DNA of 64,000 nucleotides from Gammaproteobacteria bacterium (lineage in GTDB: Bacteria; Pseudomonadota; Gammaproteobacteria; UBA12402): positions 3,561-67,560 of the forward strand of contig JASFHH010000004.1 in NCBI GenBank assembly GCA_050123335.1, in the 5' to 3' direction. Position numbers and translations under genes: made by a program. The notes beneath the pieces were generated by a model. It had not been told where the DNA came from, made no database searches, and saw only the letters and a list, made by a program, of their open reading frames with translations. This document shows, piece by piece, positions 758 through 33,206 of the stretch; positions within the stretch are counted from its first letter, which is position 1, and each line of letters starts with the position of its first letter.

Positions 758-1390
758 ATGAAAATAATTTTATTAGGTCCGCCGGGTGCAGGTAAAGGCA
801 CGCAGGCAAAATTTATTTGTGATAGGTTTAAGATTCCATTTATTTCCACTGGCGATATGCTGCGCGCAGCAGTTGCTGCTAAATCTCCTTTAGGACTGAA
901 AGTAAAAGCAATTATGGATGCTGGTAAATTAGTTTCTGATGATATTATGGTTGCGCTCGTTCAAGAAAGAATTGCGCAGCCTGATTGTGCAAATGGTTTT
1001 TTATTAGATGGTTTTCCACGTACGATGGAGCAAGCGCAAGCATTAACTAATGCGAAAGTCACAATTGATTGTGTGATTGCAATAGTTGTTGTTGATGATG
1101 AAATTGTACGCCGCATGTCAGGACGGCGCGTACATCAAGCAAGTGGGCGTACTTATCATGTGATTTATAATCCTCCACGCGAGGAAGGCAAAGATGATGA
1201 AACTGGTGAGCCTCTAATTCAGCGCGAAGATGATAAAGAAGAGGTAGTGCGTCATCGACTTGAAGTCTATCACCAACAAACTCAGCCATTAATTCAATAC
1301 TACCAAGCTAACGGCGCAGTTAAATTTGTCCAGGTTGATGGCTCTGGCAGTATTGATGAGATTACGCAAGAGATCTTGAAGCGTTTATAA
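758..1390 (+). CDS. adk: adenylate kinase
   Basis: [18 protein letters not shown] and LLDGFPRT motifs plus LID domain. True start is ATG 758 after AAGGA; the ORF-track extension runs through the palindrome. Confidence 0.97.
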
Positions 1391-2278
1391 AGTATTGTAA
1401 GATTTTTTTTCTGGCGTATCAATTAAACGGCATTCTGAATCATTTTCTGATTTCTTTTTTTGACAACAAAAGAACATGGTAACACAACAATTTTGAGAAC
1501 CATTTTCCTCACAATAATTTTTTACAAATTCACGATCATTTAGTACACCTGTTAGGCTAATCCTATTGTGTTTAACCTTATTAAATTTTTCCATTTCTTT
1601 TTTAGTGTTATTATAAGCTTTTTCTGTATTTTTGAGATGATAACGCGCCCACATAATACATCCAGCTATAAAGCTAGCTGGCTGAATAATTCGTTTGATA
1701 AGTAAATTTGATGCGCCAAAATATAAAAATACATCACCAACTACTAACGAAGACACCCAGGTTTTGTTGAGATTATAAATTCCATTAAAAATTTCCGCTA
1801 AACCCTTGTGAACTATAGTTGATAATTTTGCTATTATTCGCCATTTATAGTTTAACCTACCATCTTTTTTCAGTTTATTCTGCGCTTTTTGTTTCAGATA
1901 ATCAGCAAAATGATAAATTAGCCTTAGCATCCAAGCAGGCATAATAATCGCAAGCATTGTTATTTTTGTACTTGTATTTGAAAGTGACGCATTTGGTTCA
2001 ATAGTTGTTTTCTTGCCAAACCAACCGCCAAGCCCGATAAATATTAGTCCGGCTACATCAAACCCAGCTTCTAATATTGGTTCTACGATCCACTTAATTG
2101 GCCAATCCAAAATTTTAAAAGGCAAAAGAGTCAGATCTGTGATTGGCTTACAACACGCAAGTGTGCAATCACTTATAGTGCGCGCATCACTAAAATTTTT
2201 TTTTACATTTTTCCACCAATTTTTAAGACTTTGCCATTGTTTTTCTACCCATTGTTCACAAGTCTTCACTATAAACAT
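1385..2278 (-). CDS. membrane ORFan, putative Dot/Icm-type effector
   Basis: ATG 2278 with GGAG RBS and upstream PmrA box. Hydrophobic helices, Cys cluster [14 protein letters not shown]-terminal YNTL. Confidence 0.6.
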
Positions 2279-2319
2279 AATTGCACTCCTTTTGTTATTT
2301 CTTCTCAAAGCGTTTGTGT

Positions 2320-2352
2320 ATTATAATTTGCAAACCTTAAGGAAATCTTAAG
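2320..2352 (-). promoter_or_regulatory. PmrA-type box plus -10 element
   Basis: - strand reads CTTAAG-ATTTC-CTTAAG-N10-TATAAT. Confidence 0.8.
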
Positions 2353-31900: not shown

Positions 31901-32077
31901 GCTTATGATAAAAAACCTAAGATACCTAAAACAGAAATAATAAAAAAACATGGGATATTTGCCCCAAAGAAACAAAAGATCCCAAACAAAAATCCTGATA
32001 ATATGAAATCAATACTGGAAAACGCATGGCGTGGTGAAAGTTATTATCAAAATTACTGGATGTGTAATCTCCTTTAG
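28991..32077 (+). CDS. large effector-like protein with divergent class II nucleotidyltransferase (PcnB/CCA-like) domain
   Basis: IIGSAMLRHLYNKPPTDYDMLV and DDFFGGLLHLKSKKVVLIHNPTTTFNQSPEKAYR..YAIAFGFEL. Polybasic tract. C-terminal CNLL. Confidence 0.7.
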   Translation: MLNGNYKVYLKLKECIKTNYTNIRSYKTLQLVETTKILQLTKQAIGFVRNYEIEFICNKKMIITSKIKPKIVIKINSRTRSTIISLPFKQQLIHLKPKIFISNTDCMLIGFILENVYAKHNKKNWKFGKEKKRRLVTHLMFVLFPCLNALLHQVAEFKSVDEALKIYDFIIENIAANYMKIGALVKKGMLQQYVLRKNDKAIKSYQDAYKICKKINCYDLIFVLTCLYPIFHNSKNLPLKIWFPESLHKIICKKLNKHFGPYLKSQIALLVTGFTKEENIELKIFIVRIYECYIKYAILNKIKLSNKLLHKFYLTQHRTHGLSLEDLFDLAVSKNNFLIALALYDEENKLNPANIDFYIKFIIFTIDQNQTIIANKLLNKLSEYSKAVESSKYAIIFYLLNGNAKQAKKCKFGNISNLELITINNYLGKKVAKNLKIILNKIESKINTVSKKNKHNKRNKKRKIKKKRKQQKKLFMKADEKQQTMKPKTKIEKKPPTPIYIPGSKINPEIIEIIKAIQNKCPVIMIIGSAMLRHLYNKPPTDYDMLVGCNLDEIKLFIPKKYSVTFIEGEHPHLVVKYGKNKTVDINTLIYKTMVVICKRIDYQTTKKLYQTIFRLVDRFIVLMCIDNGKLTMIDIIWFDDRTNNIRFQQITKKHKSKLFNKLWNSYIQQLKKRKKNTIYKFFIKNHIITVHIAKLFEVTDIEIPLKRYLRGGTATITSIGWSYNQKENVFYTKDDFFGGLLHLKSKKVVLIHNPTTTFNQSPEKAYRIIYYAIAFGFELKEKTLKSLQKRKDLLFKKPYAPHPNTIYKYIKKLLLEDGAATIKYINSNKLWHLVPLFKLPNSKFPTERDIIFYIECFTELRKAVRNIQQIKEEIIIPAILLYPNIHEALKTFTMILQQSRCWRTFYSVVHNLIINEEYFKPFKAAANFFAAIDTIRHVIVYRNASIPKKSDISKKLTIETKLLLKGFEIAYDKKPKIPKTEIIKKHGIFAPKKQKIPNKNPDNMKSILENAWRGESYYQNYWMCNLL

Positions 32078-32078
32078 C

Positions 32079-33206
32079 CTATGATCTCACTACAGCTACC
32101 GACATAAAATATTCCCTCTTTAAAGTCATAATTCTGTTATATGATAAATTTATTCTTTGTTCTGATATAACCCCTTGCTTAATAAGTTGGTTGACAATCT
32201 GTATAACTTTTTGTGCAATATGCGGTTGATATTTGAGTTGATTGCCAAATAACAAAATATCAGCGCCCGCTTTTATCGCCAGTTTTACTGTGGTTTCTAA
32301 ATTATATTTATCAGTGATAGCCTGCATTTGTAAATCATCAGTTATTACAATTCCTTTAAAACCTAACTTATGACGCAAAAGTTTCGTAATAATTGGATAT
32401 GAAATAGATGCTGGGTGACCTGATGGATCCAGAGAATAATTAACAATGTGCGCGGCCATGATTAAATCGCAAGCTTGATTTGTATCAATCAATTTTTTAT
32501 AAGGAGTTAATTCTTGTGACTGCCAAGTATTAGTAACATCGACAAAACCTTTGTGCGTATCACCAGTTGAGCTGCCATGGCCAGGAAAATGTTTTAAAGT
32601 GCATAAAATGTGGTATTTTTTATAAGTATTAGCAAATATTGCTGCGCGATTAATCACATTGCTTGGGTCTTTGGAAAAACTGCGTCCCAATTTACCGATT
32701 ATAGGATTATTAGGATTTATATTTAAATCAACAACCGGAGCAAAAGCTAAATCAATCCCTTCACTATTTAAAGTTTTTGCCATTAATGTTGCGTACTTTT
32801 TTGTTACTGATAATGGTTGTGAACCTAAATATTGTGCGCTAACTGTTTTAGGAAAACCGTATGAAGGTTTCAGCCTAGTTCCTGCAGTTCCTCCCTCATA
32901 ATCAATACCAACAAACAAAGGAACCGCAGTATAACTTTGTAATTGCTTAACAAGGCGTTTTAATTGATAAGGACTTTTTATATTATTATCGAAGGTTTTA
33001 GTTTTGTAATTGTAATCAAACAAAACTACTCCTCCAATTCGTTCTTTTATTATATCTTGAACTACAGGATCATTTTGATGCAATGTGCTGCCATTAAAAC
33101 CAATCATAATCATTTGACCAATTTTTTGATTTAAGCTTGGTTTAGCACTAACCGGCAAAATAATAAAAAAACAAATCACCGCAAAAAAAATTTGAAATTG
33201 TTTCAT
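32079..33206 (-). CDS. nagZ: GH3 beta-N-acetylhexosaminidase
   Basis: KHFPGHGS..GDTH, IDYEGG, ITDDLQM; signal peptide. Confidence 0.88.
   Translation of the reverse strand: MKQFQIFFAVICFFIILPVSAKPSLNQKIGQMIMIGFNGSTLHQNDPVVQDIIKERIGGVVLFDYNYKTKTFDNNIKSPYQLKRLVKQLQSYTAVPLFVGIDYEGGTAGTRLKPSYGFPKTVSAQYLGSQPLSVTKKYATLMAKTLNSEGIDLAFAPVVDLNINPNNPIIGKLGRSFSKDPSNVINRAAIFANTYKKYHILCTLKHFPGHGSSTGDTHKGFVDVTNTWQSQELTPYKKLIDTNQACDLIMAAHIVNYSLDPSGHPASISYPIITKLLRHKLGFKGIVITDDLQMQAITDKYNLETTVKLAIKAGADILLFGNQLKYQPHIAQKVIQIVNQLIKQGVISEQRINLSYNRIMTLKREYFMSVAVVRS

Follow-up and report, generated by a model that had tools for sequence, protein, structure and literature searches.

How can cargo genes come to lie between a housekeeping gene and a second copy of that gene's own 3' end when no integrase gene accompanies them? 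This question is raised by a stretch of 64,000 nucleotides (nt) of contig JASFHH010000004.1, referred to here as the window, which belongs to G000, a 1.9-Mb metagenome-assembled genome (MAG) of a gammaproteobacterium (97 contigs; genome GC content, 0.349). A preliminary description of the window had noticed such duplicated ends at adk, nagZ and a tRNA-Glu gene, and it had proposed that small circles carrying a cargo gene and a relative's allele of the 3' end integrate by one crossover. BLAST confirmed that all three repeat pairs are real, and a Pfam scan detected no recombinase, integrases included, in the adk, nagZ or tRNA-Glu units. We analyzed these units together with the rest of G000 and with its single close relative, G001 (a MAG of 70 contigs that is ~88 to 95% identical to G000 in shared genes). 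On balance, we regard it as probable that adk, nagZ and about a dozen like units are small integrase-free cassettes that entered by a single reciprocal crossover.

Duplicated 3' ends at adk and nagZ

Throughout, H denotes the repeat copy within the working gene and F the displaced, dead copy. The two protein-gene units of the window consist of the following features (aa, amino acids).

758..1390, + strand, adk, intact host gene (Pfam ADK 1-150/151 and ADK_lid)
1319..1396, + strand, 3' end of adk, H copy, including the stop codon at 1388-1390
1385..2308, - strand, adk cargo, 307-aa ORFan with no Pfam family, GC 0.32
2428..2505, + strand, 3' end of adk, F (dead) copy, present in G001 too
28677..28837, - strand, 3' part of nagZ, F (dead) copy, with a 105-nt internal deletion
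28991..32077, + strand, nagZ cargo, 1028-aa ORFan with no Pfam family, GC 0.29
32079..33224, - strand, nagZ, intact host gene (Pfam Glyco_hydro_3 2-316/316)

The likely start of adk is the ATG at 758, and the longest open reading frame (ORF) begins at 653. Within the window, BLAST aligned the two adk copies (1319-1396 and 2428-2505) with 85 to 86% identity over 73 to 78 nt (E = 2e-20). The nagZ repeat was recovered in two segments, one pairing 32104-32210 with 28677-28783 (93% identity; E = 4.7e-41) and the other pairing 32317-32369 with 28785-28837 (94% identity; E = 3e-18); the downstream copy is without the 105 nt that lie between these segments, and it abuts the start codon of a hydrolase gene at 27847-28674. 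The working nagZ repeat spans 32104-32369 (266 nt), and a three-way alignment showed that the last 25 nt of the gene are unique to H. The expectation that differences between the copies would be mostly synonymous was borne out at adk (7 synonymous and 3 nonsynonymous changes) and was marginal at nagZ (6 and 5, respectively).

Both cargo genes are placed tail-to-tail with their host genes, and both are AT-rich (GC, 0.29 to 0.32, versus 0.415 for adk and 0.349 for the genome). Among 5.8 billion proteins, the 307-aa ORFan had two relatives and the 1028-aa ORFan had none but itself; matches of the latter in the Protein Atlas scored <0.9 and are leads only. Eighteen adk loci at the family or class level showed neither synteny nor cargo homologues, and no tRNA gene lay close to them. 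A metagenome scan for NagZ returned 46 loci, the best of them 51% identical, and none was usable as a closer relative.

Recurrence of duplicated gene ends in G000

The whole of G000 was compared with itself by BLAST, and low-copy direct-repeat pairs of 35 to 600 nt that lie 0.3 to 20 kb apart were retained. Sixty-four such local pairs were obtained. By a fixed rule, 17 of them were assigned to the layout under study, in which one copy coincides with the very 3' end of an intact gene and its partner lies downstream; three of the 17 proved to be tandem paralogues, leaving 14 loci. The pattern noticed in the window therefore recurs genome-wide. The mirror layout at gene 5' ends was represented by 3 pairs in G000 (one a paralogue pair) and 4 pairs in G001; most of these pairs are paralogues, and the layout itself occurs only one to two times per genome. 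At the 14 loci the repeats measure 39 to 248 nt, all above 30 bp, and their start-to-start spacing is 0.44 to 6.5 kb, all below 20 kb. Cargo is tail-to-tail with the host gene at 6 loci, co-directional at 7 and on both strands at one (on contig C14), and this mixture indicates that the tail-to-tail arrangement noted for the window cases is no rule. Beyond the two window units, Pfam analysis identified the following cargo.

ffh: HicBA
gshA: SocA/Panacea pair, plus a second cassette with an HD-domain protein
pepP: AbiEii/AbiEi
fba: ParE/HTH
xylose-isomerase-like gene (C14): D12 methylase, AlwI-type endonuclease and two further genes
pilP: 96-aa GIY-YIG protein
fxsA: AAA_14/DUF4143 ATPase
1005-aa gene (C20): AAA ATPase
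polX: RCC1-repeat protein
rlpA: ankyrin-repeat protein
271-aa hydrolase gene (C26): 736-aa propeller-like protein
pfkB-type kinase gene: 515-aa ORFan

The main cargo thus comprises toxin-antitoxin pairs, one restriction-modification system, AAA ATPases, eukaryote-like repeat proteins and ORFans. The preliminary description had supposed that the cassettes each carry a single effector-like ORFan; adk and nagZ do have a single ORFan each, but cargo is mostly toxin-antitoxin and defence genes, and a cassette often holds 2 to 4 genes. Most of the toxin-antitoxin pairs examined in G000 belong to these cassettes. No recombinase family and no intact transposase family was detected by Pfam among the scanned cargo ORFs of the 14 G000 cassettes and of 9 cassettes found in G001. 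Remains of insertion sequences (IS) are present in two units: the tRNA-Glu islet contains an ISL3 remnant, and one G001 cassette contains a copy of IS200. Two sequencing runs matched, a wetland run with 0.77 of the sequence words and a sediment run with 0.05, both at the level of contigs.

One further candidate, a repeat beside a TacAT cassette on contig C60, proved to be a low-copy element of ~90 nt and no gene end, and it was left out of the count. This element occurs in G000 at C60:5305-5352, C60:6264-6366 and C14:497-587 and in G001 at C18:35627-35718 and C64:3424-3514, where it accompanies TacAT and ATPase cassettes at different places in the two genomes.

Empty sites and swapped cargo in the sister genome

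The same scan of G001 assigned 11 of 53 pairs to the gene-end layout, corresponding to 9 loci: eno, fba, copA/mutM, gshA, yhdP, a TPR-methyltransferase gene, a ParE-like gene, yciB and ffh. Cargo at these loci includes YafQ/RelB, HicBA, AbiE and TacAT systems, ATPases and a vWA/U-box protein. For 5 of the 14 G000 loci (pfkB, pilP, C20, pepP and rlpA), G001 has an empty site at which the repeated sequence is single copy. At other loci both genomes are occupied, and the occupants differ. Two cassettes are present at gshA in G000 and one in G001, and at fba there is one in G000 and two in G001. The first slot at ffh holds YafQ/RelB in G001 versus HicBA in G000 and is followed by a HicBA cassette that both share; G001 has three copies of the ffh end. 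The adk cassette, together with its dead copy, is also found in G001 (~94% identity) and so was in place before the two species split. The nagZ gene of G001 has a different C-terminal tail and lies tail-to-tail with a tyrosine recombinase gene. Among the loci compared between the two genomes, there was no duplicated gene end without cargo. The relative shows empty sites and alternative cargo, not the decaying whole-gene tandem duplicates that had been named beforehand as the finding that would speak for a different history.

The adk-linked ORFan of G001 has been cut by a repeated IS with an 8-bp target duplication, and the assembly is broken there (ends of contigs C37 and C49).

Substitution patterns in the working and dead copies

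Across 26 repeat pairs (1832 coding nt), H and F differ at 174 sites, of which 44, 30 and 100 fall at codon positions 1, 2 and 3, respectively. In the 21 pairs that aligned well, changes were polarised against the orthologue from the other genome; three segments designated "-b" were misaligned and were dropped. Changes private to H were synonymous in 37 cases and not in 12. Among those private to F, 33 were synonymous and 38 were not, a synonymous share of 46% compared with the 24% (0.244) expected (p = 4e-5). The dead copies therefore appear, from their codons, to carry a signature of purifying selection, which a copy that had merely decayed in place should not show. A four-way alignment of adk separates two phases: the F differences that predate the split of the species comprise 4 synonymous changes and 1 that is not, and the later F changes comprise 2 synonymous changes and 4 that are not.

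Three loci with long repeats, nagZ, polX and rlpA, have the appearance of reciprocal chimerism, in that the dead copy has kept a sister-like distal end and the working gene ends in a divergent stretch. In nagZ, the F-private changes are proximal and the H-private changes are distal, and the three nagZ tails all diverge after a common GAATATTTTAT. In polX, F and the sister gene encode EVK where H encodes AAP. The F copy of rlpA has kept the sister-like last 20 nt together with 35 nt of native downstream DNA; the last 20 nt of the intact rlpA are ~70% like the dead copy and the sister gene, and unrelated DNA follows. Internal deletions are present in the F copies of all three genes, so that the segments originally duplicated must have been at least 290 nt (nagZ), at least 770 nt (polX) and at least 380 nt (rlpA) long. 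Taken together, the chimeras and the synonymous bias are consistent with one crossover with an incoming, diverged allele that was linked to the cargo, as had been proposed from the window.

The tRNA-Glu islet and the recombinase block

Two further parts of the window had been grouped with adk and nagZ, the tRNA-Glu islet as an equal case and a block of recombinase, Rap1a-like and Mrr-type genes as a possible fourth. Neither assignment was upheld. Their features are as follows.

4106..4181, + strand, tRNA-Glu (UUC), called by ARAGORN; its last 53 nt (4129-4181) form repeat copy 1
4223..4348, - strand, ISL3-family transposase C-terminus remnant, 42 aa (Pfam DDE_Tnp_ISL3, E = 5.9e-13)
4747..5817, + strand, cargo of the tRNA-Glu islet, 356-aa ORFan with no Pfam family
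6011..6063, + strand, second copy of the tRNA-Glu 3' end (52/53 nt)
20985..27817, + strand, recombinase/Rap1a/Mrr element of 6.8 kb with four tyrosine recombinase genes (Pfam)

The tRNA-Glu repeat (4129-4181 and 6011-6063) is 98% identical (E = 1.3e-21) and spans the anticodon loop to the 3' end of the tRNA. No tyrosine integrase gene lies between 4182 and 6010, and without one the islet could only be a remnant or a satellite of an integrase island. Classical integrase-bearing islands are present in G000 at tRNA-Thr (48-nt repeat) and tRNA-Met (67-nt repeat), where the repeats are copies of the tRNA 3' ends. Because its architecture matches that of these islands, the tRNA-Glu islet is most likely an ordinary integrase-less remnant of a tRNA-targeting integrase island and is not evidence for a new route. 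The ISL3 remnant suggests decay, and G001 has other cargo behind tRNA-Glu. The islet resembles known integrase-less remnants of tRNA islands, which we take to be what are called CIME-type (cis-mobilizable) elements, in being bounded by the last 53 nt of a tRNA and in having no integrase. The repeats of the protein-gene cassettes differ from those of such remnants: they are longer, have diverged further, are specific to each locus and have no core in common. For the 356-aa ORFan, language-model and structure comparisons gave sub-threshold leads to the ADP-ribosyltransferase families Lart1, NarE, scabin-like and DarT, with scores of 0.79 to 0.81 that shuffled proteins often reached too.

The block at 20985-27817 encodes two tyrosine recombinases and a DUF6262 protein (two Phage_integrase matches plus DUF6262, in tandem at 21300-24293), a third recombinase, a weakly Rap1a-like ORF and an Mrr-recombinase fusion. 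The trio at its start is Tn554-like, since in the Tn554 family the two tyrosine recombinases TnpA and TnpB are followed by the small TnpC, to which DUF6262 presumably corresponds. The block sits in the loop of a hairpin formed by a palindromic repeat that is contiguous in G001, and TTTTCTTATC, a 10-nt sequence, is present at both junctions. There is no gene-end copy at the block, which is a separate element outside the gene-end phenomenon. Its Mrr_cat-recombinase fusion is 73 to 77% identical at the nucleotide level to its own 400-aa recombinase, and the G001 homologue of the latter is the gene that lies directly tail-to-tail with nagZ.

Origin of the cassettes

In the single-crossover account, the cell's own homologous recombination, presumably dependent on RecA, would join the 3' part of a resident gene with incoming DNA, which was probably circular, may have entered by transformation and would have borne the cargo and, for this 3' part, the allele of a relative. 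The product would comprise, in order, an intact gene with a possibly foreign tip, the cargo and the displaced, dead gene-end copy. The dead copy would subsequently erode through deletions, and more cassettes might stack at either copy. Because the direct repeats would also permit loss or excision, addictive cargo such as toxin-antitoxin and restriction-modification genes would be expected to survive preferentially.

Several observations weigh against this account. When dead-copy changes were tested for a proximal and working-copy changes for a distal position in the pooled data, the result was not significant (Mann-Whitney p = 0.064), with 10 of 17 loci in the expected direction. The short repeats at C20, pepP and pfkB resemble plain duplications of resident sequence, and repeats of 39 to 55 nt are short for RecA-type recombination unless they have been eroded, which is demonstrated at nagZ, polX and rlpA only. 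Extra DNA found only in G000 separates the dead copy from the native flank at 3 of the 5 empty-site loci, and no significant repeats flank these segments at C20 and C61. When collinear indels between G000 and G001 were counted, the census found a junction overlap of at least 30 nt in 8 of 92 simple indels, so that the gene-end route would be one among several. ComEC and DprA are intact in G000, and they count as weak evidence because they are present in 10 of 14 control genomes. Finally, the comparison rests on one close relative, and adk and nagZ have no empty-site genome.

Alternatively, the cassettes could be remnants or satellites of site-specific elements whose tyrosine recombinase was lost or acts in trans and whose attP site mimics the gene 3' end. 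G000 has 9 to 10 tyrosine recombinase genes, and its tRNA-Thr and tRNA-Met islands combine an integrase with 48- and 67-nt repeats. The tRNA-Glu repeat has exactly this form, with an IS remnant in the islet, and the tyrosine recombinase gene that adjoins nagZ in G001, where nagZ has its other C-terminal tail, also fits a site-specific origin. However, about 20 different targets would have to be served: no 10-mer was common to 20 repeat loci beyond random gene-end controls, which argues against one recombinase acting in trans, and an integrase has been kept in none of the 14 and 9 cassettes. The original segments inferred for nagZ, rlpA and polX far exceed the usual att identity, and the crossover positions vary between loci. 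We therefore regard a site-specific origin as doubtful in general; it probably holds for the tRNA-Glu islet alone.

If the duplication were copied from the resident gene as the insert went in, no foreign allele would be involved and the dead copy would then decay; possible routes are staggered breaks followed by fill-in, a template switch, or the joining of one homologous and one illegitimate end. The excess of synonymous F-private changes (46% against 24%) is not what such decay predicts. Nor are the states at nagZ, polX and rlpA, where the working end is the odd one out, with 26 private changes versus 15 in the dead copy, and where the 20-nt end of the intact rlpA is only ~70% like both other sequences. 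Copying from the resident gene would account better for pepP, C20 and pfkB, at which the two copies share states that differ from the sister and the dead copy has most of the private changes, and for the proximal part of the polX dead copy, which has five GC-to-AT changes typical of decay; the published class discussed below was likewise described as target duplication. As an explanation of the cassettes as a whole, we consider it improbable. An assembly artefact in which strain variants were joined head to tail, or a similarity due to chance, would have to be entertained for two MAGs of 97 and 70 contigs, but it is hardly credible given E values of 1e-18 to 1e-41, copies that differ by 3 to 15% and therefore cannot be collapsed or duplicated k-mers, and the presence of the structures at adk, gshA, fba and ffh in two genomes that are ~90 to 94% identical and were assembled independently.

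More speculatively, the cassettes could be mobile DNA of a class that sustains itself without any enzyme of its own and exists as circles of cargo plus a hybrid gene end, a proposal that we put forward only tentatively. Recombination between the two gene-end copies would free a circle of cargo with one hybrid end; that end would be the homology arm for the next host, the conserved tails of housekeeping genes would be universal landing pads, and addiction modules would ride the cycle by punishing loss. If true, this cycle would be a main route for the turnover of toxin-antitoxin, defence and host-interaction genes in the lineage.

Relation to known systems

A class termed insertion with long target duplication reportedly goes back to Nobusato et al. 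in 2000 (Gene 259:99). Campbell-type insertion-duplication, in which circular DNA with one homology arm integrates, is a textbook mechanism and is used as a tool in transformable bacteria. It predicts exactly an intact gene with a hybrid end, the cargo and a displaced hybrid copy; it is known from laboratory procedures or plasmids, whereas the cassettes here are chromosomal. In the sections of Furuta, Abe and Kobayashi (2010; PMC2853133) that concern the long-target-duplication class, it is defined for restriction-modification genes by genome comparison, with inserts of <20 kb, direct repeats of >30 bp (30 to 420 bp) that are single copy at empty sites and often span stop or start codons, and no mobility genes. 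These sections place the class mostly in naturally competent species and leave the mechanism open, and a virus-like cycle is hypothesised; the screen covered restriction-modification genes only and yielded 9 cases among 760 locus pairs in six species (PMC2853133). A natural life cycle for such chromosomal cassettes is hypothesised there and not demonstrated (Furuta et al. 2010, PMC2853133).

The cassettes of G000 share with this class repeats above 30 bp, inserts below 20 kb, the absence of a mobility gene and cargo of a selfish or defence type, including the D12 methylase and AlwI-type restriction gene of C14, as well as a single copy at the empty sites of pfkB, pilP, C20, pepP and rlpA. In contrast to the published reports, the cargo here consists mostly of toxin-antitoxin pairs, ATPases, eukaryote-like repeat proteins and ORFans, the density reaches 14 loci in 1.9 Mb, cassettes are stacked, and the selection signature and chimerism point to an imported allele and not to a copied target. 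The arrays at ffh, gshA and fba also resemble those of integrons and superintegrons in being made of small promoter-less cassettes, often toxin-antitoxin pairs, separated by repeats. Unlike integrons, they have no IntI beside them and no shared attC-like element, the separators being copies of the host gene end; the Phage_integrase matches of G000 lie away from the cassette arrays. In the open-access literature we found no description of long target duplications with toxin-antitoxin or eukaryote-like cargo, and no relevant paper was among those listed there on Campbell-type integration, natural transformation, direct repeats and genomic islands.

In structure, the cassettes thus belong to a published class and are no new kind, and the mechanism is unproven. 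What the present case adds is a density that is high in both sister genomes, a cargo in which toxin-antitoxin pairs predominate and eukaryote-like repeat proteins also occur, the stacking and swapping of cassettes, and statistics that support an imported allele. Cassettes of this type account for at least 14 acquisitions in the 1.9 Mb of G000, and most surveys of mobile DNA, which rely on integrases and transposases, would miss all of them. Codon-position bias, reciprocal chimeras and stacked arrays make the sister pair a source of testable evidence for the imported allele. If the single-crossover account is true, homologous recombination with a borrowed gene end would amount to a general, enzyme-free integration system.

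Other features of the window and of G000

Dispersed non-coding repeats of ~120 and ~170 nt lie at 600-721 and 33206-33379 of the window, each present in several to dozens of copies in G000 and G001. A 425-aa ORF with no Pfam family (2668-3945) has ~71% nucleotide identity to its G001 counterpart, and its neighbours have ~94%; it is either fast-evolving or an exchanged allele. The indel census alone recovered, at C73:3248-5694 of G000, a 2.1-kb two-gene insert that is absent from G001 and lies between 196-nt direct repeats that are 90% identical. A 3.1-kb segment of the window (8706-11800) is missing from G001 with a clean junction; it encodes a Schlafen/AlbA_2 and HATPase_c_4 protein and an MFS transporter, and it contains ~7 copies of the 11-nt tandem repeat CAAGCTTAGGA at 10161-10248. 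Adjoining maf, the region at 33959-49025 measures ~15 kb in G000 versus ~0.5 kb in G001 between collinear flanks and represents a large replacement.

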